A stretch of 64,000 nt of DNA from IMG/VR virus record IMGVR_UViG_3300050498_000493, one strand, 5' to 3'. The notes under the pieces are model-generated. The model was not told where the DNA came from and ran no database searches. It worked only from the letters and a program-made list of their open reading frames with translations. This stretch comes from a virus. Shown in pieces: positions 19,032-61,658 of this stretch; within the stretch, counting starts at the first letter, position 1, and each line of letters begins with the position of its first letter. The position numbers and the translations under genes are program-made.

Positions 19032-19080
19032 CACCACGACGGTCCTCGATGCTCTGGTTCCTTACAAAGGATACACGCAG

Positions 19081-19953: not shown

Positions 19954-19965
19954 TCCGTCACGAAG

Positions 19966-19997
19966 GCCCACACCTGTTGGTACTGGCAGGTGTGGGT
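19966..19997. terminator. Hairpin, possible terminator
   Basis: CCCACACCTG...CAGGTGTGGG inverted repeat right after stop codon; weak U-tract. Confidence 0.45.
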
Positions 19998-21039: not shown

Positions 21040-21052
21040 CCTAGGAGCCCTG

Positions 21053-21280: not shown

Positions 21281-21495
21281 AATAATGCTTGACTTTTCCC
21301 CAGGTTATCCACAACCTTAGCGCATAATTCGCTCTCGCCCTCGGGCGAGATCCGCCTCTGTCTCTCACGCGGCCTTCGGGAACGAGCTTCCTGGAGGCCG
21401 CGTTGTCGTTGGCGCCCCTGGCTCTGCGGGATGTAGAGCCCCTGATCCCTGCCTGGCGGGATGCCGGGCCAACCACACACACCGAGAGGGTGCGT

Positions 21496-28522: not shown

Positions 28523-28553
28523 AGTATATAAATCAACGTGCTGTGAGGAATAG

Positions 28554-35000: not shown

Positions 35001-37511
35001 ATGGCGCTATGGATTGTCGTTCGTCGTCGTCGCCTGCGTCGGCTGCGGCGCTTTGTGCCCACGCAGCGACTACTCACCGCGACGACGGCGCTGGCGCAGG
35101 CGGCGCAGACGCTTACCGCCACCGGCGCGCTGGCGCTCACCGCGACGACCAGTCTCCCCCAGGCCGCGCAGACCGTGAGCAGCGCGGCCGTGCTTGCCCT
35201 CCAAGGCTCCAGCACCCCCACCCAGGCGGCCCAGACCCTTGCCGCCACCGGCCAGGGCGTCCCGCTCCTGACGGGGACGCTCGCGGTGACGCAGGCCGAC
35301 CAGACGGGCAGTAGTACGGCTGCTGTAGCCCTCCAAGGCACGACCACGCTCACGCAGACCGCGCAGACCCTCACCGGGCTCGGCGCGCATGAAGGACCGT
35401 TTGTCCAGGGCCGTTGGCCGTTTGGCGCCTTGCTCGCCACGACCATTCCCGGGACTGTGCATGGTCTGGGGACGCCCAATCTCTTCGTGCAGGTCTATGA
35501 TGCCGGGATCCCGGCGATGCAACTTCAGGCCCAGGTCACCATCCATCCGACCTCCTACGATGTGCAGGTCCAGTTTGGGGCGCCGACGGCAGGGACCGTC
35601 CTGGTGAGTGCCATGACCCAACCCGCAGCCGGGAAAGCGTTTCTCGTCGCCGATGGCGCGAGTTGGAGCTTTCCTGCCAGCGAGCACGGGCGCGGGAGTG
35701 GGCCGCTCTTTGTGCAACTCTTTGACGCCAGTGGCATCAACTTCGAAGCGCAGATCCAGGTCGCGGCGACAACCGGGGATGTCCTGGCGACTCTCCCGGC
35801 GGCGCGGGACGGGCGGCTCGTCGTGGCGGCGCCCAGTAGCGTGCCGACCCCGGCCAATAGTGCGACGGCGTTTAGTGGCGTGACCAGTGTGACGGTGCCA
35901 GCCGCCACGCATGGGCGCGGGTCGGTCAATCTCCTTGTGGAGGTCTATGACGCGGCCGCGCCTGCCAGGCTCCTCGATACGCCGATCACCGTCAACCCTA
36001 GTACGCAGGCTGTGACGGCGACGTTTTTCGTGACGCAGGCGGGCACGCTGGTTATTGGGGGCGGCGCGGCGGTCGGGGCGGGAGCGGTCAGCGTCACGCA
36101 AGGCGCCCAGACAAGCAGTAGTACGGGGACGCTCGCGCTCCAAGCGACGGTTGCCCTGACGCAGGCGGCACAGACAGCGACGAGTACGGGCACGCTGCCC
36201 CTCCAGGCGGCGGCCACGCTCACCCAGGCGGTGCAGACGTGCAGCAGTACGGGCGCGCTGCGGGTGCAGGGTACGAGCAGTATGACGCAGGCTGCTCAGG
36301 CCCTGACCAGTACCGGCGTGCTGCCGCTGACGGGCACCAGTGCGCTCGCGCAAGCCGCACAGACGGTGAGCAGTATTGGGGGTTCCCAGGCTCTCGGGTT
36401 GGCGGCGCTCACGCAGGCGGCGCAGACGCTCACCAGTACCGGCGTATTGCCGCTGACGGGGACGAGCGCGCTGACGCAAGCGGCGCAGACGCTCACCAGT
36501 ACCGGCTTCATGTTACGCCTCGGGAGTGCTGCACTCACGCAAGCCGCTCAGGCGCTCGTGAGTACGGGCGTGTTGCCGCTGATGGGGACCAGCACTCTTA
36601 CGCAAGCCGCGCAGACGCTCAGCAGTACTGGCGTGCTGCGACTTGCCGCGACGACGAGCCTGACGCAGGCCGCCCAGACGGTGACGAGTACAGGCGGCAC
36701 GGCGCTGCAAGGAAGCGCCGTGCTGACGCAAGCGGCGCAGAGTCTGACGAGTACCAGCGTCCTCGGGCTGGCGGGGAGTGTCACGGCCAGCCAGGCACCG
36801 CAGACCAGCACGAGTACTGGGGTGCTGCCCGTGGCGGGAACCGTGACCGCGACGCAAGCCGCGCAGACGCTCGCCAGTACTGGGACCCTGGTGGTCGGCG
36901 CGAGTGTCGCGGTCCTTCAGGGTGCTCAGTCGCTTGCCAGTACGGCGGTGGTGCCACTGAGCGCGACCGTGGCGCTCAGTCAGGCCGATCAGGCGGGGAT
37001 CAGTACGGGCGTTCTGGCCATGACAGGTACTGTCGCGGTCACGCAGACCGCCCAGAGCCTCAGTAGTACGAGCTTCCTCATCAATCCGGCCTCGGGCGCC
37101 GCACTCCTGACGCAGGAGGCGCAGAGCAGTGTGGCGACGGGCCGCCTGCGCCTCGTCGGGGTGGCCACCGTCAGTCAGGAGGCGCAGAGCAGTGTGGCGA
37201 CGGGTGCCCTGCGGCTCGTCGCCACGGCGACCCTCAGTCAGGAGGCCCAGAGCCTCGACGCCACAGGGTTCCTGGTGTTTGGCGGGACGGCAGTCGTGAG
37301 CCAGGCACCGCAGACGCTTGTGAGTCAGGGGGCCATTGCTCTGGCCGCGACGGGGCTCCTCGTGCAAGCCGCGCAGACAGTTGCGGCGGAAGCGATGAGT
37401 ATTCCTGTGCCTGAAGTCGTCCGAGGCGCCCATGGAGCCCTGGCCCATGCCACCGCGAGCGCCATGGGCTTGCGCCGTACGGGCCTCGGGTACACTCCTC
37501 TTTTAAGGTGA
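35001..37511 (+). CDS. Repeat-rich fibre/filament-like protein
   Basis: Many ~21-aa LTQAAQTLxSTG repeats around three 'HGxG...LxVQxYD' domains. Confidence 0.75.
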   Translation: MALWIVVRRRRLRRLRRFVPTQRLLTATTALAQAAQTLTATGALALTATTSLPQAAQTVSSAAVLALQGSSTPTQAAQTLAATGQGVPLLTGTLAVTQADQTGSSTAAVALQGTTTLTQTAQTLTGLGAHEGPFVQGRWPFGALLATTIPGTVHGLGTPNLFVQVYDAGIPAMQLQAQVTIHPTSYDVQVQFGAPTAGTVLVSAMTQPAAGKAFLVADGASWSFPASEHGRGSGPLFVQLFDASGINFEAQIQVAATTGDVLATLPAARDGRLVVAAPSSVPTPANSATAFSGVTSVTVPAATHGRGSVNLLVEVYDAAAPARLLDTPITVNPSTQAVTATFFVTQAGTLVIGGGAAVGAGAVSVTQGAQTSSSTGTLALQATVALTQAAQTATSTGTLPLQAAATLTQAVQTCSSTGALRVQGTSSMTQAAQALTSTGVLPLTGTSALAQAAQTVSSIGGSQALGLAALTQAAQTLTSTGVLPLTGTSALTQAAQTLTSTGFMLRLGSAALTQAAQALVSTGVLPLMGTSTLTQAAQTLSSTGVLRLAATTSLTQAAQTVTSTGGTALQGSAVLTQAAQSLTSTSVLGLAGSVTASQAPQTSTSTGVLPVAGTVTATQAAQTLASTGTLVVGASVAVLQGAQSLASTAVVPLSATVALSQADQAGISTGVLAMTGTVAVTQTAQSLSSTSFLINPASGAALLTQEAQSSVATGRLRLVGVATVSQEAQSSVATGALRLVATATLSQEAQSLDATGFLVFGGTAVVSQAPQTLVSQGAIALAATGLLVQAAQTVAAEAMSIPVPEVVRGAHGALAHATASAMGLRRTGLGYTPLLR

Positions 37512-46353: not shown

Positions 46354-46455
46354 AGCGTGACCTCCTGGATCACAGGGCATCGTTGGGGGAAGTGGCTGGC
46401 AGGCGATGAACTCTGCCCCGGTTTCGAACCCGGTGCCACTCGACACAAGAGTATA
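46354..46455 (-). ncRNA. Structured leader RNA and TATACT -10 box of HNH-3
   Basis: P1 AGTGGC/GCCACT enclosing CCGG..CCGG and GGCAG/CTGCC hairpins; CCAAC after P1. Confidence 0.5.
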
Positions 46456-46459
46456 GCAT

Positions 46460-46846
46460 ATGAGCAGTAGTATTGCTGTTCCTGACATCTTCCCGTTGGT
46501 CGATGCCATCCTTGGGCGTCGGTATGAGGACTATAACTGTTGGCACCTCCTGCGGGATCTCTATGGGAAGGGTTGGGGCATTGATCTCGACGCCGATCCC
46601 GCTGCTGCCGCTGCCCAAGTCCAAGAAATCTGGTTTCAAGGCGATGCTCGTGATCCGCTCATGTTGGTTCAGGCATGGGACATTTTGATCTTCCGTCCCC
46701 AGGGCATGGCGAGTAGTCATGTGGGGATTGTCTGTGATGGTCGGCAGTTTGTGCATACACGAAAGAACCTGGGCACATGTATGGAGTTGACGAAGCGTTG
46801 GGCGCCCCGCCTGATGCAGATTGCGCGGTTGCGGCGGCTCCTGTAG
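46460..46846 (+). CDS. NlpC/P60 tail protein (gpK-like)
   Basis: YNCWHLLR...SHVGI...FVH. Confidence 0.85.
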   Translation: MSSSIAVPDIFPLVDAILGRRYEDYNCWHLLRDLYGKGWGIDLDADPAAAAAQVQEIWFQGDARDPLMLVQAWDILIFRPQGMASSHVGIVCDGRQFVHTRKNLGTCMELTKRWAPRLMQIARLRRLL

Positions 46847-49800
46847 CGACCGTCACCTGCATCCTGGTGCTGTCGCCCCTACGGGCCGCCGATGGCCATC
46901 TGCGCGTGCAGCGCGAGGTGTTCCCGGCCGGCGATCCGCTCGACGCCTATCTGCCCGAGGGCGAAGACCTGGCGCGCGTCTGCGTCAACGGGGCGACGAT
47001 TCTCCCCGAGCATTACGCGCGCTACATGCCGCAGGCGGGGGATGAGATCTGGCTCTGGCCGACGTGGGGTGACCCGGCGACGCTCATTGGCATTGGTATC
47101 TCGTTGCTGGTCGGTCTGGCTATTTCGGCAGTCTCGCATTTCCTCTTTCGCCCGAAGCCCCTCTTGTTGCCGCAGCAAAACCAGATGGGCGGCGAAACCG
47201 AACGGACCTTTTCCTTTGAGGGCATTCGCACCGCCATTGGTCCGGGGGCGGTGGTCCCCGTCATTTATGGGCGCCACCGTATTGGCGGGCAACTCCTCCT
47301 CGCCACCGTCGACCAAGCCGCCGTCGTGGTGGCGGATGGCACGACGGCGCCCTCCGCCACTATTATCGACGTCACCCACGGGGAACCCTCCGACATTGTC
47401 TATGTGACGGCGCCTCATCACGGCTTTGTGACCGGCCAGATCGTCTTTATTCAGGGCGTCCAAGGCAAAACCGAAGTGAATACCACCTGGGCGATTCACG
47501 TTGGGGATGCCGACACCTTTGTCCTCGACAGTTCGTGGGCTGTGGGGATTACCCATCCCTATCAAGGGGGCGGGACCGCGACGCTCTACAATCAGGGCGA
47601 TCGCACGTACCAGGCCATCACCAATCCGCCCACGCTGACGCTCATGATTGCGCTGTGTGAAGGCCCCATTGACGCCATCTTGACCGACACGATCCAAATT
47701 AACGGCCAACCGCTGGCGAACTTCCCCGGCGTGCAGGTGTATACGGGCCTTGGCACGGCCAATCAACCGGCCTTTGCAGAATTTGGCGGGGCGCGCAATA
47801 CGTTTGCCGACGGGCGCGACATTGGGGAGAGTCCCCTCACCTATACCTCCAACGCCGCGCTGCATGCCTTTGTGCTCAACCTGGTCTGGCCGGAAGGGCT
47901 CTATTTTCTCAACGAGAAGGGCGAGAAGCAGAGTAATACGACCGTCATGCAGTACCGCTTTGCCCCCAGGGGCACGGGGAGTTGGTCGGGGTGGACGGTC
48001 TTTCAAGTCAACGCGGACCGGACGGCGACGGTGCGCCTGGGGGTGCGCCGGGAGGGGTTGCCGTATCAGTCCTACGATATTCAGGTGCAGCACCTGCGGT
48101 CGGGCAATACCGACGAACTCCGGGCACGCTACAAGAGTGTGCTCGAAAGTGTCACTGAGTATGTGCCGGATACCTTTGCCTATCCCTATACCGCCTGGCT
48201 CGGCTTGCGGGCGCTGGCGACCGATGCCTTGCGCGGGGCCTTGCCCAATATTACGGTCGAGGTGCGGGGCCGTCAGGTGCGGGTGGGGTCGCTGGCCGTC
48301 CCTGAAACCTGGTCCGATAACCCCGCCTGGTGCGTCCTGGATGCCCTCACCAATCAGCGCTATGGCACGGGCGTCCCCGATAGCGATATTGACCTCACGG
48401 CCTTTGCGCTCTACGCCGCCTATTGTGATCAGGAGATCCAGGGCGAGCGGCGCCATACGCTCAACTACGTGCTCGACCGGGAAACCCGGGCACAGCAATT
48501 TTTCTTGGAAACCATGGGTGGCAGCCGGGGTATTTTGCTGAAGACGGCCGGCCTCTGGACGCCGCGTCCGACGCGGGATGAAACGCCGACGTGTCTCCTT
48601 TCCTGGACCTCGGTAAGCAATGTCCGCCTCACCTATATTCAGGATGTCGATGCCATTAACGTGGTGGAAGCCCGCTTTGCCAGTGAAGACCACGACTTTG
48701 AGCAAGACGTCATTACCTGGCCGGCCCTGGCGCAGTGGCCGTCCGAGGTCCATAAGCACAGCTTTGATTTGCGCGGAGTGACCAAGCCCAGTCGGATCAT
48801 GCGAGCCCTCCAGTACGAACTCAATCGGCGGCGCTTTGAAAATCTGCTGCTGGAGATGGACTGCTCGCTCGAAGCGTTGCCGCTGCAAATGCATGATCTC
48901 TTTCGCTTTGCCCATCCCTTGCCGGGCTGGGGGACGTCCGGGCGGATTCAAGAGGGCTCCAATGCGGCCATCCTGCAGGTCGATGAGGATTGCCTTTTTG
49001 AGCAGGCCGTCACGTATGTGGTGTATGTGCGGCATGAAGATGACACGCTTGAAGCCCGCGAGGTGCTAACGATCACGTTGGGGACCACGCGCACGCTCCA
49101 TCTCGCCTCGCAACTGAGTTTTTTCCCCGTGCCTCGCACCTCGACGTTTGTCTTTGGCACGCTCACGACCAACGCCAATACGCGGACGTTTCGGGTCACC
49201 GGCTTGCGGCGCAAAAATGATGTGACCGTGAGCCTCGAAGCCCTCATTCACAACCCGAGCATCTATGATGAGGCGGTGGCGACGCCGCTTGGCGTCATTA
49301 CCACCCTCTTTAACCCGGAAGGCCCGCCGCCGCCGCTCCTCTCGCTCGTCGCCACCGAAGTGACGCGGATTCAGACGAGCGGGGCCAGCCTGCGCGTCAT
49401 CAATCTGTCGTGGGACGTCGCCCCCCTCAGTAGTGGCTATGCGCCGTATGGGGGGGCCATGATTTTTCGCCGTGTACTCGAAGCGACGGGGCAACTCGGC
49501 CAGGTACAAGCGGGGACGATTGGCGCCGGGGCCGTCAGTAATCCCAATGACCCCAACTTTAACTATACGCCGGTTATTCAAGTGCGCGGCCATGTGCTCG
49601 ACTGGGATGACTATACCGCCATTAGTGGCTCGACGTATCAGTATCGTGTCGTGCCGATCTCGTATCTGGGGGTGCCCAATAATGCCGGGGCGCGGGAGGC
49701 CGTCCTGCATGTGGCCGGCCCGACGACGGCGGACTATTTCCCCTTGCAGCCGCGTAATCTGCGCCTCCAGGGGCAAGCCGTGGGTGTCACCATCTGGGAA

Positions 49801-52077
49801 GGGCGCGACCTCCATGTCGAGTGGGATAGCGTGGCCGATAGCCCGCTCTTTAGTGAGACCTTCTTTGTCGCCTTCTACGTGGTGCAGGTCTGGGCGCCAG
49901 GGCAACTCTATCTCATGCGCGCCTATAACGCGGCGCTGGCGCCCGCAGGCCAGAGCGTGCAGTGGACGTATACCCATCAGCAAAACGAAGAAGACCAGAT
50001 TCGCAGCGGCTTTGCAGGGGCGCGGCGCGATCTGCAGGTGATGGTATGGGCCGTGACGAATACGGGGCTCCTCTCGGTGGAGCCGGCCGTGATCGTGGTG
50101 ACCAATCCGCCGCCCGACATGAGTAATATCTTGCCCGAATGTACGGCCCTGTTTGAGGCGGTGTTGATTGATTGGAAACAATGGGTAAGACCCAGGGACT
50201 TTGACCATTTTCTGGTCTTGCTCGATGCCGGCAACCCGCCTACCATCCCTAATCAGACGCTCGGGATTGATTTCCAAAAAATTGCCGTCACTGACCTCAT
50301 CCCCGATATCACGTATTACGTGCAAATTATCCCATACGATTCGTTCGGGATCGGCGTGGGCAGTGCGATTGCGTCCGTCACGCCAGTGGCCCTCACGGCG
50401 GATAAACTCGACAATACGCCGCCAGCCGTCCCCACGGGCCTTCGCCTCACCACGGGCACCGACACCAGCGCAGACGGGACCATCATGACCTGGGTCCAGG
50501 CGCACTGGGACCAAAACCTTGAAGAAGATCTGAGCGGCTATCAACTCGCGTTTCGGGTGGCCTCGCCCAACATTCCCACCGTGGTGCAGCCCGGGCGCTT
50601 TGATACGACCTATAAACTCTTTGTTCCCGGCAATGTCACCGTCTTTGCCAAGATTGCCTCGATTGATCGCCTGGCCAACCTCAGTGTCTTTAGTGATCCT
50701 GAAGTGTCCATTACCACCGGCCGCGATGGCACACCGCCCTCGCCCGCTGCGAACCTGCACGCCATTGGTACCGTACAAAAGATTGCGCTCCTCTGGACGC
50801 CCCCGGGCGATCTGGATTACGACTATAGCGAGGTCTGGACGTCCGGCTTGAACGATCGCAGCACGGCAGGGGTCATTGGGCAGGGGAGCTACAGCTTTGA
50901 ACATACGGGCTTTGTTGCCAATCAACGCGCCTATTACTGGATTCGTCCCGTGGATACCTCGGGCAATGTAGGGCCGTTTCACCCGGCGTCTCCGACGGCA
51001 GGCGTGACCGCCGTCGCCGGACAACTGGACGACACCTTTATTAGCTCCCTGGTCGCAACAAAAATCCTCACGGGGAAACTGACGGCGCTCGTGAGTATTG
51101 GCGTGGCCGATCGCGTCTATATTGATGGCACCAATAGTATTATGGTCATCCGGGATCAGAACATCGGCAATAATCGGGTGCTGATCGGGAAGCTTGGCCC
51201 CTTGTCGGATCAGTACGGGATTCAGATTTTTAATACGAACGGCGGGCTCATGTTTGACGCCAATGACAGTGGCGTCACAGCGGCCGGGATTAAAGCCGGC
51301 GTCGTCAATGCGGGCCATGTCCGCACTGATACGGCGGTCATTACCGTGGCCGCACAGATTGCGACCGCGATTATCGACGACGCGCATATCAGAGAAGTGA
51401 CGGCGAACAAGATTATTGCGGGGACGATCAACTCCCAGGTGTTTCTTGGAGGGACGATCGCGGGGACGATTGCCCCGATTGTCCTGGATGGGGTCAATCG
51501 CCAGATCATTATCCGGGATGATAACGACACGATTCGTGTCTGGCTGGGGCGCATTAATGCCTCACCGACCGGCTACTCGATCCAAATTTACCGGCCCGAT
51601 GGCACGCTCATGTGGAGCCCGGAAACCGGCGCACAAACGGCGGGGATTGCGCCTGCGGCGGTCATTACGCCGACCATCCAGGCCAATGCCGTCACCAACA
51701 GTGTGGCGTATACGGACATTGTGGGGCTCAGTGTGACGGTGAGTGAGACGGCGCTGGCCTCGCTCGTTTTTGCGCTCAACGAGGGGGATCAGGTCTGGGT
51801 GACGCTCACGGCCACCGTGAGCGTGGCCACGTCGAGCGACGCGTGTGAGTTGCGCATCCGCGAAAATAGCGCGGCCTCGGGGTCGCCCGAACTCGCCTAT
51901 GGCCAGACGACGGGGCCGGGGCGCTTTACGATGGTGTGCCAGGGCGTCTATACCGCCCCCAGTGGCTTTAGCGGGACGACCAAGGCCTTTGTGGGCACGT
52001 TTAAGAATGGCGGCCCGGACGTCAATTCTATCGGCGCCGATCATATCAAGATGGTCGGCTTTCGGAGGCAGCGCTGA
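46777..52077 (+). CDS. Tail tip / host specificity protein (gpI-gpJ fusion) with FN3 repeats; exact start uncertain
   Basis: VPVIYGRHRIGG, LCEGPI, WSDNPAWC, FN3 repeats, ITAxKI-like repeats. Confidence 0.92.
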   Translation: MYGVDEALGAPPDADCAVAAAPVATVTCILVLSPLRAADGHLRVQREVFPAGDPLDAYLPEGEDLARVCVNGATILPEHYARYMPQAGDEIWLWPTWGDPATLIGIGISLLVGLAISAVSHFLFRPKPLLLPQQNQMGGETERTFSFEGIRTAIGPGAVVPVIYGRHRIGGQLLLATVDQAAVVVADGTTAPSATIIDVTHGEPSDIVYVTAPHHGFVTGQIVFIQGVQGKTEVNTTWAIHVGDADTFVLDSSWAVGITHPYQGGGTATLYNQGDRTYQAITNPPTLTLMIALCEGPIDAILTDTIQINGQPLANFPGVQVYTGLGTANQPAFAEFGGARNTFADGRDIGESPLTYTSNAALHAFVLNLVWPEGLYFLNEKGEKQSNTTVMQYRFAPRGTGSWSGWTVFQVNADRTATVRLGVRREGLPYQSYDIQVQHLRSGNTDELRARYKSVLESVTEYVPDTFAYPYTAWLGLRALATDALRGALPNITVEVRGRQVRVGSLAVPETWSDNPAWCVLDALTNQRYGTGVPDSDIDLTAFALYAAYCDQEIQGERRHTLNYVLDRETRAQQFFLETMGGSRGILLKTAGLWTPRPTRDETPTCLLSWTSVSNVRLTYIQDVDAINVVEARFASEDHDFEQDVITWPALAQWPSEVHKHSFDLRGVTKPSRIMRALQYELNRRRFENLLLEMDCSLEALPLQMHDLFRFAHPLPGWGTSGRIQEGSNAAILQVDEDCLFEQAVTYVVYVRHEDDTLEAREVLTITLGTTRTLHLASQLSFFPVPRTSTFVFGTLTTNANTRTFRVTGLRRKNDVTVSLEALIHNPSIYDEAVATPLGVITTLFNPEGPPPPLLSLVATEVTRIQTSGASLRVINLSWDVAPLSSGYAPYGGAMIFRRVLEATGQLGQVQAGTIGAGAVSNPNDPNFNYTPVIQVRGHVLDWDDYTAISGSTYQYRVVPISYLGVPNNAGAREAVLHVAGPTTADYFPLQPRNLRLQGQAVGVTIWEGRDLHVEWDSVADSPLFSETFFVAFYVVQVWAPGQLYLMRAYNAALAPAGQSVQWTYTHQQNEEDQIRSGFAGARRDLQVMVWAVTNTGLLSVEPAVIVVTNPPPDMSNILPECTALFEAVLIDWKQWVRPRDFDHFLVLLDAGNPPTIPNQTLGIDFQKIAVTDLIPDITYYVQIIPYDSFGIGVGSAIASVTPVALTADKLDNTPPAVPTGLRLTTGTDTSADGTIMTWVQAHWDQNLEEDLSGYQLAFRVASPNIPTVVQPGRFDTTYKLFVPGNVTVFAKIASIDRLANLSVFSDPEVSITTGRDGTPPSPAANLHAIGTVQKIALLWTPPGDLDYDYSEVWTSGLNDRSTAGVIGQGSYSFEHTGFVANQRAYYWIRPVDTSGNVGPFHPASPTAGVTAVAGQLDDTFISSLVATKILTGKLTALVSIGVADRVYIDGTNSIMVIRDQNIGNNRVLIGKLGPLSDQYGIQIFNTNGGLMFDANDSGVTAAGIKAGVVNAGHVRTDTAVITVAAQIATAIIDDAHIREVTANKIIAGTINSQVFLGGTIAGTIAPIVLDGVNRQIIIRDDNDTIRVWLGRINASPTGYSIQIYRPDGTLMWSPETGAQTAGIAPAAVITPTIQANAVTNSVAYTDIVGLSVTVSETALASLVFALNEGDQVWVTLTATVSVATSSDACELRIRENSAASGSPELAYGQTTGPGRFTMVCQGVYTAPSGFSGTTKAFVGTFKNGGPDVNSIGADHIKMVGFRRQR

Positions 52078-52404: not shown

Positions 52405-53898
52405 GTGGCCCAACTGGGCGCTGGCATTTCCACGGGGTATCCTGGCGTCATCGACACGCGGCAGACGTTTATCAATGCGGTGCCGGTGGCCCCCGATTCG
52501 GCATCAAGGGTCGACGCGGAGGTTGTGAACGATCTCTTGGCGGCCACGGTCGCGGTACAGACGACCTTGGGCACGAATCCCCAGGGGACCTTTGGTTCGC
52601 TCGCGGCCCGGCTCCAGCAGTTCTTGCCTGGCGGCGGTGAGAGTCCCCTCTTTTTCACCTTCAATGCCACCACGAGCGTCACCATTGCGGGCACGACGCA
52701 TCGCCTCGGCACGCCCGCGCCCCTCTTCCAGGCGTACAATGCCGAAACGCCGCGCCAGGTCATTCAGCCCAATACCGTGGCGATTGATACGCTCACCTAT
52801 GATGCAACCTTTACGTTTCTCACGCCGCAAACAGGCGTCATTAGTCTCGCGGCCCCGAGTCCCCAATATACGGTCTCGTTTACCAATCAGACGACCGTCA
52901 GTATTCCGGGTACGACGCACGCCCTCGGGACCGCTGATCTCCTTGTGCGTGTCTATACCGTGAGCGGCACGCAGAACATCCTGACGCAGGTGCCCGTGAG
53001 TATTGCCCCCGCAACGGCGGATGTCACCGTGACGTTTGTGACCCCCGCGAGCGGGACGGTTATTGTGAGTGGCGCGGGTCCGCGCTTTGTGGCGACGTAT
53101 ACGAATACCACGACGGTGAGCGTCGCGGGCGCCACGCATGGGCTCGGGACGGCAGCCCTGCTCTTTGCCGTCTATGACAATGCGAGCCCGCGCCAGAGTC
53201 TCTTGCCCAACACCATCACGGTCGATCCCAATACCTTTAACGTCGTGATGACATTTCTGACCCCGACGAGCGGCCGGCTCCTCATTGTGAAAGCCACTGC
53301 CATTACCGGCACCGACTTTGAAATCCGGGACGCGGGCGTCACCAATGCCTCGGCCGTGCGTGTCTTGAGTGAGGACGGCGCGCTCCTCCTCCAGATGGGG
53401 AGTGGTGAGGTCGTGGAAACCCTGAACAAAACGGGTAGTGTGGTGCAGCGGACCGATAACAGCGGCAATCTGATGATTACGGGCACCGCGACCAAGCCTG
53501 GCGGCGGCAGTTGGCTCAGTCCGTCGGACGAGCGCCTCAAAAAGGACATTGCGCCGTTTGTCGATGGGCTAGAGGTCCTACTCCAACTCGAGCCGATTTG
53601 GTACCGCTACAACGGCCAGGGCGGTATTCCCATTACGCGTCAGCGGCACATCGGTTTGCGGGCGCAAGCCGTGCAGGCCATCGCCCCCTATATGGTGACG
53701 AGTCGTCGGGGCGTCCTCACCCCGAATAGTGAGGAGACGGACCTGCTGGCGCTCGATACCGAGGCGCTCCCGTACCTGCTGCTCAATGCGCTGAAAGCGG
53801 TCTGTCAGCTTCTGGAGACGGCGCGTCAGGACAAGGACGCGCTGGCGGCGCGCGTGGAACGCTTGGAGGCCCTTGCGGCTACGAAAGGAGGCACATGA
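52405..53898 (+). CDS. Tail fibre with C-terminal intramolecular chaperone (peptidase S74)
   Basis: W..PSDERLKKDI...IGLRAQ.VQ...P...coiled coil; three 'THxLGT' repeats. Confidence 0.88.
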   Translation: MAQLGAGISTGYPGVIDTRQTFINAVPVAPDSASRVDAEVVNDLLAATVAVQTTLGTNPQGTFGSLAARLQQFLPGGGESPLFFTFNATTSVTIAGTTHRLGTPAPLFQAYNAETPRQVIQPNTVAIDTLTYDATFTFLTPQTGVISLAAPSPQYTVSFTNQTTVSIPGTTHALGTADLLVRVYTVSGTQNILTQVPVSIAPATADVTVTFVTPASGTVIVSGAGPRFVATYTNTTTVSVAGATHGLGTAALLFAVYDNASPRQSLLPNTITVDPNTFNVVMTFLTPTSGRLLIVKATAITGTDFEIRDAGVTNASAVRVLSEDGALLLQMGSGEVVETLNKTGSVVQRTDNSGNLMITGTATKPGGGSWLSPSDERLKKDIAPFVDGLEVLLQLEPIWYRYNGQGGIPITRQRHIGLRAQAVQAIAPYMVTSRRGVLTPNSEETDLLALDTEALPYLLLNALKAVCQLLETARQDKDALAARVERLEALAATKGGT

Positions 53899-54377
53899 GA
53901 CATCGCTGGTTTGGCCTGGGATGTATGCTCGGCTTCGTCTTCTGGAGCGGCACGCCAGTGTGGGCGCAGGGCCAGTTTTTTAACAGTAACCTTACCGTCG
54001 CCGGGACGATTAACGCCGGGACCGCGACGGGCAGTGGCAATGCGTATGTGTTGACGCTCAACCCGGCCATTGGCGCCTATGTGACCAATCAATGCTTTAT
54101 GTTTCAGGCCAACCACACGGTGACGGGGGCGGCGTCGCTCAATATTAACGGTCGGGGCGTCAAGGCACTGCGGAAATTTGTGTCAACGGTGTCGACGGAC
54201 CTGGCCGCCAATGACATTGCCAGTGGACAGATCATTACGGTGTGTTACGACGGCACCCATATGCAACTGACGGGCGGCGGGCCAGGCGGCGGCGGCGGCG
54301 GCGGAGGCGGCGGCGTCCCGGCCTTTGTGACCGCCACGACGGCCCTCAGTGCCCATGCGCATGCAGGAGGGCTCTAG
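53895..54377 (+). CDS. Signal-peptide fibre-domain protein, paralog of 28554-29957 N-domain
   Basis: MRHRWFGLGCMLGFVFWSGTPVWA-Q; TGAASLNING...DIASGQIITVCYDG. Confidence 0.7.
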   Translation: MRHRWFGLGCMLGFVFWSGTPVWAQGQFFNSNLTVAGTINAGTATGSGNAYVLTLNPAIGAYVTNQCFMFQANHTVTGAASLNINGRGVKALRKFVSTVSTDLAANDIASGQIITVCYDGTHMQLTGGGPGGGGGGGGGGVPAFVTATTALSAHAHAGGL

Positions 54378-54378
54378 G

Positions 54379-54876
54379 ATGCGTCGACGACGAGTGATGG
54401 GCTTCCTGGCCCTGCTAGGGGCCTTCCTGGCGGGGTCGAGTTGGGCGGCAGTCACGCCCAATAGCCCGGTGTTTATGCAAACGCCCACCGTGGGCAAAGT
54501 GCAGTTTGTCCAGGGAACCGATAGCGCTGGCACCTACAAAACGCTCTATACGGCGGGGACCAACGGTGCCCGCTGTAATGCCATGTGGCTCACCACGGAT
54601 GATGGGACGACGACCCATCTGGTGACGGTGCAGGTGGTGAGCGGGGGGCTGCGGTTTGGCGGGGTGGCGGCACTCACGCTTCAGAGCCAGGGCTTTGTCA
54701 ACGGCACGCCCGCGCTCAATCTCCTCGCGCCCACGCTCTGGGCGGGGTTGCCGCTCGATAGCGACGGCAATCCCTATATTCAACTGGCGACCGGCGATAC
54801 GCTCCAGGCCACCTACGCGACGGCGCTCACGGCGGCGACCCGGATCAATATTGTCGTGTCCTGCGGTGAGTTTTAG
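54379..54876 (+). CDS. Signal-peptide virion-like protein
   Basis: MRRRRVMGFLALLGAFLAGSSWA-A; TLYTAGTNG...L.TGDTL. Confidence 0.7.
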   Translation: MRRRRVMGFLALLGAFLAGSSWAAVTPNSPVFMQTPTVGKVQFVQGTDSAGTYKTLYTAGTNGARCNAMWLTTDDGTTTHLVTVQVVSGGLRFGGVAALTLQSQGFVNGTPALNLLAPTLWAGLPLDSDGNPYIQLATGDTLQATYATALTAATRINIVVSCGEF

Positions 54877-54901
54877 TATGTATTGTCCTAAGGGAGCGCT
54901 C

Positions 54902-55837
54902 ATGATGCGACGAAGCCTGCTCTGCCTGCTTCTCCTGCTTACCAGCGGCACGTTCGCCCTGAGCGAGGCGCAGCAACTCGGCGGACGGATGCACCAGAGT
55001 AACGTGCGCCTGAACAAGCTGCGGGCGGGCACGCTCACCAACTGCGGGAGTAACAACTTTGTGAGCGGCTGGCGCCCTGATGGCACGACGATTTGTACCG
55101 CGTTCGCCCTGGATATCAGCAATGTCGTCACCCTCACCGGCGCGCAAAAGGTCTCGAATAAGCAGCTCGTCCCCAAGGCCGTCCCCTATACGCCTGGCGG
55201 AACACCGTTATCCATTACACCCAATCTGGACACGACCGATATCGTGGTGGTCGATGGCATTACCGGGGATCTCACGATCAACGCGCCTGTTGGGACGGGG
55301 GGCAATCCCACCGACGAGCAGGAACTGTCGTTTCGCTTCAAATCTACCACCCCGCGCGCGCTCACCTGGCACCCCATCTATACCACCGAAAACGGCATTC
55401 CGCTGCCCACGGCCACGACGGGGGACGGCACCACGACGGATCGGGTGAAGGTGCTCTATAATGCCACCTCGGCCAAGTATGGCTCCGTGGCCACGACGCA
55501 GGGCGTCGGGCGGGGCGTGACCACGAGTACGGGCACCGCCACCACGCTCAACTGTAATGCCCAGATTGCCGCGCTGTGCCGCTATACCATGACCGGGGCA
55601 GCTGGGACGCTGACGATTACCATGAGTGGCACGGTGACGGACGGCACGCTCACCCGAATTAGTCTTAAATGTACAAACGCCCAAGTGTTGACGCTGAGCA
55701 CGGCGGGCTTTTTGCCGTCGCCCAATATTTCCCTCACCATCACCTGCCCCGCTACGGCCGCAGGCATGGGGTGGTTTGATCTGGGGTTCTCGTATTCCCA
55801 GGCAGACGGCAAACATCAATTGATCGCTAGCAACTAG
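54902..55837 (+). CDS. Signal-peptide fibre-like protein
   Basis: MMRRSLLCLLLLLTSGTFALSEA-Q; two related beta domains. Confidence 0.7.
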   Translation: MMRRSLLCLLLLLTSGTFALSEAQQLGGRMHQSNVRLNKLRAGTLTNCGSNNFVSGWRPDGTTICTAFALDISNVVTLTGAQKVSNKQLVPKAVPYTPGGTPLSITPNLDTTDIVVVDGITGDLTINAPVGTGGNPTDEQELSFRFKSTTPRALTWHPIYTTENGIPLPTATTGDGTTTDRVKVLYNATSAKYGSVATTQGVGRGVTTSTGTATTLNCNAQIAALCRYTMTGAAGTLTITMSGTVTDGTLTRISLKCTNAQVLTLSTAGFLPSPNISLTITCPATAAGMGWFDLGFSYSQADGKHQLIASN

Positions 55838-55850
55838 GAGTAAAAGCACT

Positions 55851-56462
55851 ATGCATCGTCGTGTGGCGCTGGTATACGGGCTGCTCCTCGCGTGGACGTC
55901 TCTCGTCTGGGGCGGCGCGGCAACGACCCTGACGGACGCGCAGTATCAGCAACTCAACACGCAAATTACGTCGACGGATATCAATGAGAATCAAGCCGAT
56001 ATCACGGCAGGAAGGGATCAGGTGATTGCCGATCGGTACAACCAACCGTTTACGCCGACGTTTCAGGTGTATCGCACGGCGGTGACCCGGCGCGACCTCC
56101 TCTTTACGGCCTCGCCTGCCGGGACGGTCTTTATTTTCGTGGGCGATGGCTATATCTCGCGCACCCAACAGGAATTACTGACCTTTCATGACTTGTTTGA
56201 TGGCCCCAACTCCGCTATGGACCCCTCGCTCCCTAACGTCCAGCAAGCGCTCCTCGACATCTTCAGTGGCGCGGCGGGGACGAATGCCCAGAAAAATAGG
56301 GCCCACATTGGGAATATGAGCCGGCGCCCGGTGACGCGGGCGGAAAAAATCTATGTGACGCAGGGGGTGGGTACGAACGCTGATCCAGGCTATCTGGTCT
56401 GGGAGGGACGCCTCACGCATGACGATATCCGCTACGCGCTCCGGGGAGGGCCACGGCCATGA
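55851..56462 (+). CDS. Signal-peptide paralog of 32283-32792
   Basis: MHRRVALVYGLLLAWTSLVWG; YNQPFTPTFQVYRT...DPS...IFSG...RRPVTRAEKIY...WEG.LT. Confidence 0.75.
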   Translation: MHRRVALVYGLLLAWTSLVWGGAATTLTDAQYQQLNTQITSTDINENQADITAGRDQVIADRYNQPFTPTFQVYRTAVTRRDLLFTASPAGTVFIFVGDGYISRTQQELLTFHDLFDGPNSAMDPSLPNVQQALLDIFSGAAGTNAQKNRAHIGNMSRRPVTRAEKIYVTQGVGTNADPGYLVWEGRLTHDDIRYALRGGPRP

Positions 56463-56959
56463 GGACACGGCTTGCTTCCTGCCTCCTCTTGAGTCTCGTC
56501 CTCTGGACGTCCCCGCTGTGGGCCGCCTCTCCCTTCGTCTGGCTCCGGGGCGCCATCGACACCTGGATTACCACCAGTACAGGCTTGACGAGTGGCTCCA
56601 GCGTGCTCTCTCCTAACATTACGCTGACGAGCGCGAACTATACCCGGGCAGATTGTGAGCTCAATACCGGCGCCTGGAGCGGGACCGTCGCCGCTAATAC
56701 GGCCGTGGTGGTCTGGCTCATTCGGCAGGCCGACGGGACGAATTTTGAAGACGGGGCCACGGGGACGGACCCGGCCCGCATCCCTGATATGGTCTTTCCG
56801 CTGCGGGCGGTGAGCACCGCGCAGCGCATTGTGATCCCGAACCTGGAACTCCCGCGTGGAGTGTTTAAGGCCTTGCTCAAAAATGATGGAACGGGCGTCA
56901 CGCTGCAGGGCGCCCCCTGGACGCTCAAATGCACGCCGTACATTTTGCAAGTGCCCTAG
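56459..56959 (+). CDS. Signal-peptide virion-like protein
   Basis: MRTRLASCLLLSLVLWTSPLWA-A; DGTNFEDG...LP.G.FK.LLKN. Confidence 0.7.
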   Translation: MRTRLASCLLLSLVLWTSPLWAASPFVWLRGAIDTWITTSTGLTSGSSVLSPNITLTSANYTRADCELNTGAWSGTVAANTAVVVWLIRQADGTNFEDGATGTDPARIPDMVFPLRAVSTAQRIVIPNLELPRGVFKALLKNDGTGVTLQGAPWTLKCTPYILQVP

Positions 56960-57771
56960 CGCTGCTCCTGGCGCTGCTGGGCAGCACACCGAGCCTCGCA
57001 CAACCCCAGGTGGACCGGAGCGCGCCCTTTGCGCAAGGACTCCTGGCCTGGTGGGTGGCGGTGCCCGGCCTCACGGGTGGGCGGTTCCTCTATGACCTCA
57101 TGGGCCGCACCCACGCCACGCTCGTCAACATGGCGACGGCGGGCACCTCGGGATGGGCGGCGCCGACCCGCGCCGGGGATGCCGGGGAGATTCGCTTTGA
57201 TGGCACCAATGATTATGTGGATATTCCCAGTACAGGGTATTTGTTTCCCCCCGCCTTTACCCTGACGGCCTGGGTGAAACGGACGGCCATCGGGGTGGCC
57301 TATCAAAACGTGTTTACGCATACCAGTGGCGATGTGCGGGTCTTTCAAATGAAAAGTGATGGCCGGATTGCCACGGCGCTTTTGACGACGGGGACAACCT
57401 TTTCCCATGATGGTGGTGCCATCGCGCTGGCCGTGGGCACCTGGTACTTTGTGGCCTTTAGCTACAGTAGCACGAGCGGCTTTGAGGTCTCGGTCAACGG
57501 GGTGCAAGACACCTTTGACGCGCCCAATGGCACCGCCTTTGCTATTACCCAAGCCCAACGGTGGGGGGCGAACATGGCAGGATCGGCCGATTTCTTCCCT
57601 GGCGCGATGAACGACATTCGCCTCTACAACAAGGCCCTCTCCCTGAGTCAGCTCCGCGCCATGATGCAGGACAATACGCGCAGCCCCCTGGTCACGCGGA
57701 GTCTCCCCGTGGGCGTGGTCGAGGCGCTCGTGCAACAGAAACAGCGGTTCTTCCCTTTTTTTGGTCCATAA
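56929..57771 (+). CDS. Signal-peptide LamG protein, paralog of 33572-34450
   Basis: ALALLLALLGSTPSLA-Q; GLLAWW...GG...DL.GR; GAMNDIRLYNKALS. Confidence 0.8.
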   Translation: MHAVHFASALALLLALLGSTPSLAQPQVDRSAPFAQGLLAWWVAVPGLTGGRFLYDLMGRTHATLVNMATAGTSGWAAPTRAGDAGEIRFDGTNDYVDIPSTGYLFPPAFTLTAWVKRTAIGVAYQNVFTHTSGDVRVFQMKSDGRIATALLTTGTTFSHDGGAIALAVGTWYFVAFSYSSTSGFEVSVNGVQDTFDAPNGTAFAITQAQRWGANMAGSADFFPGAMNDIRLYNKALSLSQLRAMMQDNTRSPLVTRSLPVGVVEALVQQKQRFFPFFGP

Positions 57772-57790
57772 GGTATGCAGGGGGTTTCCC

Positions 57791-60700
57791 ATGCGGTCAT
57801 TAGTATGGTTGGTCGTCCTCCTCGGTCTCCTTGTCTGTACGCCCCGTGCGGACGCTGCAGAATATTTCACGGATAAAGACAGCATCGGTGGGGGCTGTAG
57901 TGATTCGAACCCGGGCACGCGCACGCAGCCCGTGTGTACGATTGATGCGGGCATTCGCAAACTCGCCGGCGGCGACACCCTCTGGATTCGGGCGGGCGAC
58001 TATGCCGAGGACATCTGGCCGTCCAATGACAACCGCTTTGGGCATGCCTGGGTGCCCGCAGGCACCAGTGAGAGTAATCGCACGATCATTTCCGGCTACG
58101 GCAACGAGCGCCCCCAGATACGCCGCGTCAACTTTGACTTTAACCAGAGTCCTCCCTCATCGCAGACGAGTTGGTTTACCCTTCGGCAAATCTATATTGA
58201 TGGCACGCGGCTTGGTCCCAAGGGGGGGGGCCAGCCCAACTGTGCCGACATCATGCATGGGCACCACAACCGCCTCCAAAACGTCTGGTTGATCGACTGT
58301 CCGTCCATGTGTACGCGGATCGAAGGGGAGTACCAGGACATTCTGGATTCACGCCTGGAGGGGTCCTTTTGGTACGGGACGTATTATTCGGGCAGTCATG
58401 GGAGGATCGACAACAATGTTTTTGCCAATAATGGCGGCTATGGCGTCCATATGTACCTGCTGGGGCAAGCCTGCCCGAGTTCAGATTGTGTCCATGACAA
58501 CGTCGTCTCCAATAATCGGGTCTACGGCAACGGGCGTGGTCCTGATGCCGCGCAAGGGGCCGGGGGCCTCCTCATCTCGCGCGGCGCCAACCATGTGGCC
58601 TACAATAATCTCGTCTACAACAATGCGTTTGGGCTCTCGATGGACCATCAGTGTGTCAACTGTGCTTTCTATAATAATACGAGTTATGGCAATGACGGCT
58701 ATGGCCTCCAGGTGTCCACCGTCACCAACGGCGGCGCCATCGTTCGCAATAATATTGTGGTTGGCAACGGCAATGACATTAGCATTGGCAATACCAGCCT
58801 CGTGGCCTCCTATAGCAATAATCTCTGTGGCGCTGGTGGCGGGTATACCTGTACCCACTCTGGCGATCCGCAGTTTACCAATGCCGGTGGGGGCGATTTT
58901 TCCTTGCAAGGGGGGAGTGCAGCCCGCAATCAAGGGGCCACAATCTCGATGGTCACGACGGGCTACAGTGGCCCTCCGGCGTTTGCGCCCATTAGCCGTC
59001 CCCAAGGCCCGGCCTATGATATCGGCGCCTATGAGTACCAGGAAGGCACCCAGCCCTTTGATTTTCAGGTCCAGTACCCTGGCGTCCAAACGATTGCGCA
59101 GGGCGGCACGCGGAGTTTTTCGGCCTCCGCAACGGTGGTCAGTGGAACACCCGTGCCTGTCACGTTTAGTGTGACCAGCCTGCCGAGCGGGGTCAGTGTC
59201 TCCAGTATTACGAACTCGCCCTGCACCCCAGGGTGTAGCGCGACCGTGACGCTACAAGCTCTGGCCGGCGCTACCCCGGGCGACTATAGCCCAACACTCA
59301 GCGCGGCGAATGGCAGTCAGGTGCGGAATTCCCCAGGCTGGACCCTCTCGGTCACCGGCACGGGAGGGAGTTTTGATTACTCGGTGAGCGATCCTGGAGA
59401 CCGGACGGTCCTCCAAGGGCAAAGTATCCAGGTGCCCGTGACGATTACCACGCTCACAGGAACCCCGGCTGCTGTGACCTTGAGTGTCACCTCCACCCTA
59501 CCCTCGGGCGTCAGTGCCAGCTGGGCCGGCACGCCCTGTACCCCGTCGCCCAATTGTACGAGTACCCTCACGCTCACGGCGACGCCGAGTGCGCCCGTCA
59601 CCCCGTCCCCGGTCACCGTGACCCTGCATGGGGCGGCGGGTGCGCTCACCCATGACCGGACGTTTCCCCTCACCGTGGCCGCGCAAGCCCCGCCGCAGGT
59701 GGGCGGCAATCCGATCTATGTGCGGTGTGCGTCAGCCAGTGGGGGGACAAGCAATGATAGCTTTAGTTGTACCGAAGCCGAAGACCCCGCCAAGGCCAAG
59801 CGCACCTTGAGTAATGCCCTCACCGAATGTATGAACACGATCCCCGGCAAAATCCTCTATCTCGAAGGCAATGGCTGTACGTACGTGGAAGAAATCGATA
59901 CGCTCGCGCGCCCCATGCTGGGCGGCAATGGCCCCAGCATGACCACCAATACGCGCCTGGAGGGGTACGGGAGCCCCGTCCCCATTATTCAGTCGCCCAA
60001 CCCTGGGGGCGCGCTCCTCTATCTCCACAACAACGACCATTATTTGACGTTCAAACGGCTGGTCTTCGACGGCGCCAATCACACCTTTAACCTGGGGGTG
60101 TTTCTGGCAGGCACCCACCACGTCCGCCTCGAAGAAGTGGAGCTCAAAAATAGTCTCAGTGGGGGCTTTGAAGGACTCTACATTGAAAATAGCGCCAACA
60201 TTGAACTGATCAACACCTTTGTCCATCACACCGGCAGCCACGGGATCACGGTGGACAACGGCATGGATACCTTGCTGTGTAGTGGGTGCCATATTTTTAA
60301 CGCGACCGGCAAGGGGTTGAACGTCACCAATGCCGGGACGAAGACGAACATCACCATCGAGCAGACGGAAGTCCGCAACAATGGGGGGGACGGGATCGAT
60401 CTCAATGGCGGGACCGGCACGCTGCTGCAAAATCTCTTGGTGCATTCCAACGGGGGTCGCGGGGTGTGGGTCCACGGGGGCGCGAGTGAGACACGGACGT
60501 TGAACAGCACCGTCTACGGCAATACCGGGGTCGGGCTCCAGTGTGATACGGGTGCCACGAGCACGCACGTCCGCAATACCATCGCGTACGGCAATACCGG
60601 GGGCAATATCCTCAACAATTGCGGGGCCACCGTCGCCAAAAACCTCTGTGCCGCGCTCTCGGCGGAGTGTGCGGTGTTTGGTGATCCACTCTTCGTCGCG

Positions 60701-60907
60701 GCGCCGGGCGATCTCCACCTGGGCAATGGCTCACCGGGCATCAATGCGGGCGAACTCATCTCCAGTATCACGGTGGATTACGACGGCAATCCGCGCCAAC
60801 AAGATACCCAAGATATTGGGGCCTATGAACGCACGCAGGCGGCGCCCGTCGGCCCCGACGTCACGGTGCGCCAGCGAGACCTCGCCCGGGTAGGGTGGTA
60901 TTTCTGA
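57791..60907 (+). CDS. Secreted protein with two parallel beta-helix domains and two Ig-like repeats
   Basis: MRSLVWLVVLLGLLVCTPRADA-A; NN..YGN/GG.G repeats; DIGAYE twice. Confidence 0.85.
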   Translation: MRSLVWLVVLLGLLVCTPRADAAEYFTDKDSIGGGCSDSNPGTRTQPVCTIDAGIRKLAGGDTLWIRAGDYAEDIWPSNDNRFGHAWVPAGTSESNRTIISGYGNERPQIRRVNFDFNQSPPSSQTSWFTLRQIYIDGTRLGPKGGGQPNCADIMHGHHNRLQNVWLIDCPSMCTRIEGEYQDILDSRLEGSFWYGTYYSGSHGRIDNNVFANNGGYGVHMYLLGQACPSSDCVHDNVVSNNRVYGNGRGPDAAQGAGGLLISRGANHVAYNNLVYNNAFGLSMDHQCVNCAFYNNTSYGNDGYGLQVSTVTNGGAIVRNNIVVGNGNDISIGNTSLVASYSNNLCGAGGGYTCTHSGDPQFTNAGGGDFSLQGGSAARNQGATISMVTTGYSGPPAFAPISRPQGPAYDIGAYEYQEGTQPFDFQVQYPGVQTIAQGGTRSFSASATVVSGTPVPVTFSVTSLPSGVSVSSITNSPCTPGCSATVTLQALAGATPGDYSPTLSAANGSQVRNSPGWTLSVTGTGGSFDYSVSDPGDRTVLQGQSIQVPVTITTLTGTPAAVTLSVTSTLPSGVSASWAGTPCTPSPNCTSTLTLTATPSAPVTPSPVTVTLHGAAGALTHDRTFPLTVAAQAPPQVGGNPIYVRCASASGGTSNDSFSCTEAEDPAKAKRTLSNALTECMNTIPGKILYLEGNGCTYVEEIDTLARPMLGGNGPSMTTNTRLEGYGSPVPIIQSPNPGGALLYLHNNDHYLTFKRLVFDGANHTFNLGVFLAGTHHVRLEEVELKNSLSGGFEGLYIENSANIELINTFVHHTGSHGITVDNGMDTLLCSGCHIFNATGKGLNVTNAGTKTNITIEQTEVRNNGGDGIDLNGGTGTLLQNLLVHSNGGRGVWVHGGASETRTLNSTVYGNTGVGLQCDTGATSTHVRNTIAYGNTGGNILNNCGATVAKNLCAALSAECAVFGDPLFVAAPGDLHLGNGSPGINAGELISSITVDYDGNPRQQDTQDIGAYERTQAAPVGPDVTVRQRDLARVGWYF

Positions 60908-60919: not shown

Positions 60920-61423
60920 ATGGCCGACGATATTCAGGTGCAGAGCCAGGGCGGCGGCGGCAATGGGTTCTCGGTGGACTTGAAGCAGCGCAGCCTGGGG
61001 ATTACCGGCCCCATCGTCATCCCCGTCATTTGTCTCCTCTTGCTGGGCGTGCTGGGGTGGATACGCTCGAAAGATCTCAATGAGCATTTAAAGGCGCTCG
61101 GGGCGCGGCAAGAGCAAATCCGCACGGAACTCCGCGAGCAAAATGCGCTGGCGGCGGCGCAGACGGAAGCCCTGCGGGGCGAGTTGCGCGACCAAAACGC
61201 CCTCGTGCATGCCCAAAGCGAGGAATTTCGCAATGAGTTTCGCGCACAGAACCGCACCATGGCGGAGCAGGCCGTCACCGCGCAGCAGGCCTTAGCGGCG
61301 CAGATGCAAGGCGTGGCCGAGCGCCTCAGTATTCTCTCGTATAATTTGGACAAACCCCCGGGGGAACGCTTACCCCTGGATGTCTCGCCGAGTCATATCC
61401 CCCAGCCCGAGCGTTCGCGCTAG
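60920..61423 (+). CDS. Membrane-anchored coiled-coil protein (holin/spanin-like, tentative)
   Basis: One TM helix followed by repeated coiled coil. Confidence 0.5.
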   Translation: MADDIQVQSQGGGGNGFSVDLKQRSLGITGPIVIPVICLLLLGVLGWIRSKDLNEHLKALGARQEQIRTELREQNALAAAQTEALRGELRDQNALVHAQSEEFRNEFRAQNRTMAEQAVTAQQALAAQMQGVAERLSILSYNLDKPPGERLPLDVSPSHIPQPERSR

Positions 61424-61436
61424 GAAGGAGCCCGTG

Positions 61437-61658
61437 ATGCGGACACGCTGGGGCGTGCTCGTGGGGCTCTGCCTCCTGTCGAGCGGGTGCTTCTGGCGCC
61501 TCCATGAGCTCACGACAGCACTGGCAGAGCGGCACGTTGCCTCGTGCATTTTTTCTGTAGGCTTTCCGTATCCTTTCATCCTGGTACGCGTGGTCACCGT
61601 GACCGGAGGGGCAAGTCTTGAAACATGCAAAGAGATCGAGCGCCTGCTTGGCCCCTAG
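61437..61658 (+). CDS. Small putative lipoprotein
   Basis: MRTRWGVLVGLCLLSSG-C lipobox; AAGGAG RBS. Confidence 0.55.
   Translation: MRTRWGVLVGLCLLSSGCFWRLHELTTALAERHVASCIFSVGFPYPFILVRVVTVTGGASLETCKEIERLLGP

Follow-up and report, generated by a model that had tools for sequence, protein, structure and literature searches.

Assembly of tailed virions is held to take place wholly in the cytoplasm; filamentous phages, whose coat proteins use host Sec, are assembled at the membrane. In the Pbunavirus Pa193, as described in the accessible sections of PMC11456595, residues 1-340 of gp47 (PDB 9B45) form a trimeric fibre fitted into the virion density, with a baseplate contact at amino acids (aa) 38-52, while the Bdellovibrio MAT proteins are portrayed in the available part of PMC10769870 as phage-fibre-like and surface displayed, with a signal peptide, a conserved N-terminal domain and variable tips. 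For disulfides in a siphovirus tail tube, either host DsbA or spontaneous oxidation has been suggested (PMC13576161, available portion). In Cellulophaga phage phi18:3 (NC_021794) the proteins gp085-gp087, annotated in the record as structural from tandem mass spectrometry (MS/MS) proteomics, score as leader-bearing with the rule given below (3 of 12 MS/MS-annotated proteins in the 41-kb stretch). The present analysis concerns a 64,000-nucleotide (nt) stretch of viral DNA, IMG/VR record IMGVR_UViG_3300050498_000493 (the whole stretch is referred to as the window), in which a preliminary description had proposed that seven consecutive fibre-type open reading frames (ORFs), together with two in the neck region, encode cleavable signal peptides. 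The leader block is confirmed as real and not due to chance, and the best reading, given a probability of about 0.65, is that its products are exported by Sec, fold in the periplasm and attach to the virion at lysis.

Leaders on nine late proteins

Genes are named by their start coordinate in the window. All seven ORFs of the block (53895, 54379, 54902, 55851, 56459, 56929 and 57791) were recovered at the positions first reported, on the + strand, and the late genes from J to 61669 are spaced by -31 to +25 nt, which bears out the tight coupling ascribed to them. A rule-based score of our own, not SignalP, was applied to the 41 late genes between 21496 and 60920, asking for a best 9-aa Kyte-Doolittle window of at least 2.0, an n-region with net positive charge (His counted) and small residues at -3/-1. 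It flagged nine genes, precisely the seven above together with 28554 and 29966 in the neck region, all nine having been named before as carrying cleavable-type signal peptides, against a background of 14 among 1283 internal pseudo-N-termini. The n-region of 56929 is weakly basic and this protein drops out if His is not counted; weakly basic n-regions were also seen in several orthologues of 57791. Among relatives the rule missed L218, L219 and L239 and gave false positives for L246 and L286. Neither a lipobox nor a Tat consensus was found in any of the nine proteins, there was no further membrane segment (highest 19-aa mean 1.56), and by this rule all nine show the sequence features of Sec substrates cut by signal peptidase I (SPase I), namely a basic n-region, a hydrophobic core and small residues at -3/-1, with no lipobox, Tat signal or extra segment.

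Leader conservation was followed across 7 loci, which gave 42 orthologue pairs. Identity had a median of 0.455 in the leader versus 0.74 over the initial 100 residues of the mature part; the leader was less conserved than the mature part in 33 of the 42 pairs, and a hydrophobic core of at least 2.0 was retained in 41 of them. A survey of related phages had been proposed as a check, and the orthologues retain the leaders. The start codon of 28554 is CTG, following GAGGA, and the orthologue in L075 has TTG at the equivalent position. The region 28316-28826 is identical in contigs of three runs, and contigs of other runs cover the leader region with few differences. The mature chain starts at residue 1-2 of leaderless homologues, and in one relative (L294) the leader precedes an N-terminus common to four leaderless fibres (43-58% identity).

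Mature domains, cysteines and scaffolds

The mature parts had been likened to phage modules, and this likeness was found again for the tail-fibre domain of 53895 and 28554, the LamG domain of 56929 and the beta-helix of 57791. A profile of the 53895 domain (A5) matched only Pa193 gp47 in the PDB (aa 236-324, E 5.9e-9), and a single-sequence search of solved structures with 53895 gave mostly Gly-linker matches, none at E <0.002. This N-domain is internal in the leaderless fibres SL1 gp57 and phiOH2 gp06, and in a survey of 80 loci, the best among 465 confirmed viral ones (73 distinct ORFs), a hydrophobic leader directly before it was absent in 63 of the 73. In 53895 it starts straight after the leader and not within a leaderless gp47-type chain that contacts the tail through its own N-terminus; 53895, 28554 and 54902 all showed homology to virion fibre domains. 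The 53895 family, from 156 to 1377 aa in length, combines the leader and a conserved N-terminal domain with a variable tip, and leader-bearing orthologues of 28554 are present in G004, L075, L076 and G007.

The protein matched by 54902, gp20 of P19250A, is leaderless, annotated as 'tail fiber protein' and adjoins J, and a homologue of 54902 is fused behind the N-domain in L013 and L155. The homologue of 54379 in L031 lies within a phage structural cluster, and the Atlas neighbours of 54379 are 83-95% viral (score 0.96). In 57791 the choice-of-anchor Q model NF041518 scored 56.6 bits versus a cut-off of 25, next to weak matches to a PHROG tail spike (E 0.005) and to pectate lyase; the protein is strongly variable among relatives and had no sequence match among solved structures. 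We take choice-of-anchor Q to be a domain of secreted bacterial proteins. It had been stated beforehand that best homologues among ordinary secreted host proteins would speak against a phage system, and this is partly the case for 57791, whose beta-helices may, given these domains, be host-derived. No family match was obtained for 29966 with Pfam, PHROG or further family models. The contigs that yielded families of the leader block are viral or phage-like.

The three genes 55851, 56459 and 56929 form a triplet (subunits A, B and C), of which A and C have leaderless paralogues in the neck region, 32283 (29%, E 9e-14) and 33572 (28%, E 7e-17) respectively. The gene between these two, 32780, was considered as a true paralogue of 56459, which could not be established (B profile E 0.013, hhalign probability 9%). 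Its N-terminal CxCxxC/His-rich segment (32780-33060), which stands before a putative beta-sandwich and is conserved in G001, G002, G004 and G008, is a possible metal site. Across 11 of 18 loci, 7 repeats or close relatives being left out, subunit B is leaderless in 7, in 6 of which a LamG match comes next, and has a leader in the other 4. A neck copy of subunit A in G004 (C1:43945-44523) carries a leader next to leaderless neighbours (44532 and 45334), so leader-bearing and leaderless members coexist within one module. When the model of subunit A (pLDDT, predicted local distance difference test, 95.4) was compared with 48,161 chains, no fold matched (best Z 4.3), and BFVD gave no match at E of at most 0.001. 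The model of subunit B gave Z 8-9.4 to PNGase and CBM6/CBM36 folds, none standing out; the comparison with CBM6/CBM36 (Z 9.2, root-mean-square deviation 2.4, 103 aligned) is level with unrelated jelly rolls, and there was no Pfam match. Subunit B (query: leaderless P0029), subunit A and the D repeats described below had no match among 50,697 phage records. Leader-bearing LamG proteins of distant phages share a C-terminal aromatic peptide (FFPFF-like; 57727-57771 in the window), and an aromatic residue is also the last one in several 57791-like proteins; these C-termini are possible docking peptides.

The number of mature Cys is 2 in 53895, 54379 and 56459, 6 in 54902, 25 in 57791, 12 in 28554, 9 in 29966 and 0 in 55851 and 56929. 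The paired Cys reported earlier are hence present in most leader families without being universal, since two proteins have none and the count is odd in 57791 and 29966. For subunit B, 133 of the 150 family representatives were retained by length; among these the leader occurs together with the pair Cys66/Cys158 in 11 proteins and without it in 4, the pair never occurs without a leader, and 118 proteins have neither; all 15 leader-bearing members have at least 2 mature Cys. In the mature B model the two residues lie on strands 41-47 and 132-142, which the jelly-roll topology suggests to be adjacent. Over 21 loci, with relatives that are non-independent, Cys counts were even in 54, odd in 9 and zero in 5 of 68 leader-bearing proteins, compared with 23, 43 and 35 of 101 leaderless late proteins. 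Disulfide formation in the leader-bearing proteins is likely on these patterns.

Two leaderless proteins, the S74 fibre 52405 and the neck protein 35001, contain three tandem D repeats of ~72 aa, which had no sequence match among solved structures. An N-domain gene lies within 9 kb of 19 of 22 distinct D-repeat scaffolds, with the leader visible in 18 and cut by the contig end in one. Among the exceptions, L072 ends 138 nt on, a leader starting there on the same contig, and L162 ends 65 nt on. The neck regions agree in 9 of 9 cases, scaffold and N-domain both being present in the window, G004, G007 (where they are ~10 kb apart), L075 and L076 and both missing in G001, G002, G006 and G008. This co-occurrence of D-repeat scaffold and leader-fused N-domain suggests a dock, and binding of the N-domain by the D repeats is put forward tentatively, at a little under even odds. 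D repeats were also found at the C-terminus of leader-bearing, Cys-rich chains (P0249, P0251 and P0252), so that they are not confined to leaderless scaffolds.

Proposed assembly route and alternatives

In the route preferred here the nine late proteins would leave the cytoplasm by host Sec, SPase I cutting the leader, and would be folded in the periplasm by host oxidases, most of them having predicted disulfides. They would be stored there as soluble sub-assemblies, as suggested by the lack of any visible anchor, and on failure of the inner membrane at lysis would attach to the leaderless neck and tail scaffolds of the particle built in the cytoplasm. A single-chain fibre would thereby be split, the tail-bound half staying cytoplasmic and the leader taking its place on the outer half. 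The likely gain would lie in Cys-rich sugar-binding heads such as 57791, needing an oxidising compartment, and the Cys-free 55851 and 56929 would travel along for co-assembly with Cys-bearing parts. The order of lysis, holin, endolysin and then spanin (PMC6116005, available part), would allow mixing inside the outer membrane, provided that the host has one.

Export and cleavage of the nine proteins are very likely, and leader conservation, the covariation of Cys with leaders and Cys parity together point to export with oxidative folding, so that this part of the earlier interpretation is well supported. It had left the destination between virions and a cell-surface appendage, and docking on the virion fits better, given the leaderless virion-fibre homologues, the scaffolds preceding the leader genes in two places and the lack of a cell-surface anchor; the leader-bearing proteins are probably present in the virion. 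That appendage sets are exported, oxidised, pre-assembled and snapped onto a triple-repeat dock between inner- and outer-membrane rupture, as a second, periplasmic branch of morphogenesis, is a possible scheme with somewhat less than an even chance.

Several observations weigh against the proposed route. One scaffold (L147) has no N-domain in the following 1058 nt, G009 has a leader-fused N-domain and no D-repeat match, and G003 and G005, whose tail genes we take to be podovirus-like, carry leader blocks with neither scaffold nor N-domain; neck modules swapped as blocks may alone yield the co-occurrence. The leader-bearing B rows belong mostly to one clade (19 of 23; a quick tree gave 4 label changes, 1 of them forced), so the covariation counts are non-independent and represent few events. 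As the mature chains of 55851 and 56929 are Cys-free, disulfides cannot explain the export of these two, and since the leaderless J and S74 fibre are retained the leader block is not needed for receptor binding. No endolysin was identified among the 43 window proteins scanned with Pfam and PHROG. The phi18:3 proteins gp085-gp087 are not homologous to those of the window, have 0, 1 and 3 Cys and belong to a phage of a different host. Virion disulfides can, moreover, form without export, according to the accessible text of PMC13576161.

Late export may also serve a role off the particle, the products acting as soluble matrix-cutting enzymes, receptor decoys or superinfection blockers, released at lysis or held in the envelope. 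This is unlikely, even if the secreted-type domains and weak pectate-lyase match of 57791 would suit it, J and the S74 fibre are still there for adsorption and virion binding of the block is a prediction. The fibre modules kept in the block are structural and non-enzymatic, and elsewhere they are virion parts that lack a leader; the block recurs next to D-repeat scaffolds at both tail and neck, and the leader of L294 stands before the N-terminus of leaderless fibres.

Less probable again is lysogenic-conversion cargo, with the block encoding a host cell-surface adhesin or fimbria. The layout of the Bdellovibrio MAT fibres is similar (signal peptide, phage-fibre-like, surface displayed; PMC10769870, in part), one relative is classed as a provirus and 56929 gave 22.3 bits with the TafC fimbrial model NF052521, far below the cut-off of 410. 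The genes are, however, coupled to J and the S74 fibre at the operon spacing given above, and lie within the head-tail operon and not as a bacterial chromosomal gene, as judged from Pfam, PHROG and gene coordinates. Promoter-like sites (3 versus 5.3 in shuffles) and terminator-like sites (16 versus 13.5) were not commoner than expected, considering sigma-70-type sites only, and no lipobox, membrane anchor, usher or sorting-signal match was found. The families occur in viral or phage-like contigs, and one GTDB scan gave no relative and a second gave S74-domain matches only.

Uncleaved hydrophobic N-termini that would tether the proteins, while assembly proceeds, to the inner membrane on its cytoplasmic side, with no export, are very improbable. 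The weakly basic n-regions of 56929 and several 57791 orthologues would agree with tethers, and cleavage is predicted by the rule above; against this, a basic n-region, a short h-region and an A-x-A-type site are present in all nine, the mature start coincides with that of leaderless homologues, and Cys pairs come with the leader, which is unexpected for a cytoplasmic location. Chance or a gene-calling artefact, for which the errors of our scoring rule could be invoked, has a negligible probability and is already contradicted by the conservation data, in addition to the low background and the few differences among contigs of other runs.

Genome setting and comparison with known systems

Late genes of a long-tailed phage were identified in the window by Pfam and PHROG scans, namely those for terminase, portal, major head protein, tail tube, tape measure, J and S74 fibre; the features discussed are collected in Table 1. 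The source phage is uncultured and from the rhizosphere; the stretch was found in 8 listed rhizosphere DNA runs, and no RNA run is among the listed runs carrying it. A Nitrospiraceae host was considered from 1 homologue at 38% in a Nitrospiraceae metagenome-assembled genome, too weak for host assignment. The two proteins at the operon end, 60920 and 61434, are possibly a spanin-like pair, with no spanin family match in Pfam, PHROG and further family-model scans.

Table 1. Positions of the genes and gene groups referred to in the text.
Coordinates	Strand	Feature	Basis
28554..29957	+	Neck N-domain protein with leader, CTG start, 12 Cys	41% to 53895, E 2e-22
29966..32254	+	Neck protein of 762 aa with leader, 9 Cys	Orthologue in L074/L075
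32283..34450	+	Leaderless neck triplet copy: 32283 (A-like), 32780 (positional B), 33572 (LamG)	Paralogy of 32283 and 33572
35001..37511	+	Leaderless neck scaffold, three D repeats (aa ~132-355) inside Thr/Ala-rich repeat chain	E 3e-30 to 52405; PHROG virion structural protein 2.4e-7
46777..52077	+	Central tail fibre J, leaderless	phrog_31 1.1e-88
52405..53898	+	Leaderless tail fibre: N-terminal segment, three D repeats (aa 80-298), S74 chaperone	Peptidase_S74 1.1e-13; PHROG tail fibre 5.5e-15
53895..54377	+	Leader (predicted cut between VWA and Q), ~104-aa tail-fibre N-domain, Cys67/Cys117, Gly linker, short tail peptide	Profile A5 vs Pa193 gp47
54379..54876	+	Leader-bearing protein without known family, Cys66/Cys162	Leaderless Cys-free homologue L031
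54902..55837	+	Leader-bearing fibre-tip-type protein, 6 mature Cys	aa 67-202 vs P19250A gp20
55851..56462	+	Triplet subunit A: leader, Cys-free, mainly helical	Paralogue of leaderless 32283
56459..56959	+	Triplet subunit B: leader, jelly-roll beta-sandwich, Cys66/Cys158	Model pLDDT 96.1
56929..57771	+	Triplet subunit C: leader, LamG-like lectin domain, C-terminal FFPFF, Cys-free	Pfam Laminin_G_3 9e-21
57791..60907	+	Leader-bearing spike-like protein, beta-helix, choice-of-anchor Q, 25 mature Cys	Pfam Beta_helix 1.6e-26, 2 stretches
60920..61658	+	Membrane-anchored protein with long helical-looking region, and small lipobox protein (61434), operon end	Sequence

Beyond the leader genes, a group I intron at 22520-22751 (Rfam RF00028, 87 bits) splits the major head gene, which is one 311-aa ORF in G001, G002, G004 and G008. 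An ORF on the opposite strand (23574-24395), presumably with an HNH-like motif, is inserted between the head gene and 24541, and further apparent insertions were seen at 45682-46470 and within the leader block of L136 and L139. The head morphogenesis gene has an apparent stop at 14217 and resumes at 14236, and between it and the scaffold gene lie ~7 kb of small, lower-GC ORFs (14427-21400). Just beyond the late operon a TraF-type S26 signal peptidase is encoded at 62851-63633 (Pfam 1.6e-13; TIGR02771 below cut-off), in a region that is possibly plasmid or host flank. A role for it as dedicated signal peptidase for the leaders was set aside, as none of 5 related records, including 2 complete ones, has an S26 match; a Thioredoxin_4 match was likewise found in 0 of 5 related records.

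When compared with described systems, the locus shares with Pa193 gp47 a fibre domain of ~90 aa. Unlike gp47, which in the available account is one chain whose own N-terminal part contacts the baseplate, the window protein has a leader in place of everything before the domain, and the SL1 homologue of gp47 is leaderless with 3 Cys in 964 aa. The 53895 family resembles Bdellovibrio MAT, as far as the accessible part of PMC10769870 describes it, in its signal peptide, conserved N-terminal domain and variable tip, but MAT is a chromosomal family of the bacterial surface whereas the present genes stand in a phage late operon, the likeness being one of layout; the S74 fibre of the window is the leaderless one. 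Cys bonds in structural proteins of tailed phages are known from phage Milano (PMC10491603) and the siphovirus tail tube (PMC13576161), and a term search of the accessible text of both found neither 'signal peptide' nor 'periplasm'; unlike in these disulfide-linked virions, the Cys-bearing parts have export leaders here. As with signal-peptide and signal-arrest-release (SAR) endolysins and with spanins (PMC6116005, available part), late phage proteins would pass through host Sec, with the difference that these would be appendages of a cytoplasm-built tailed particle and not lysis proteins.

No account of exported tailed-phage fibres was found in the open literature searched (subscription papers largely outside, supplements excluded), and the export route would be new in kind for tailed phages. 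If true, the periplasmic branch would bring a further compartment and a timed final step into phage morphogenesis, phages would gain disulfide-dependent host-recognition domains, and infectivity would come to depend on Sec and Dsb of the host. As internal controls the genome offers paralogues with and without a leader, and aa 80-298 of 52405 together with 53895 form a candidate dock of two proteins whose small size suits expression. No paper remarking on the phi18:3 leaders was found in the literature searched. Like the window, this tailed phage has leader-bearing proteins, in its case annotated as structural, and as a cultured phage it makes the export claim testable now.

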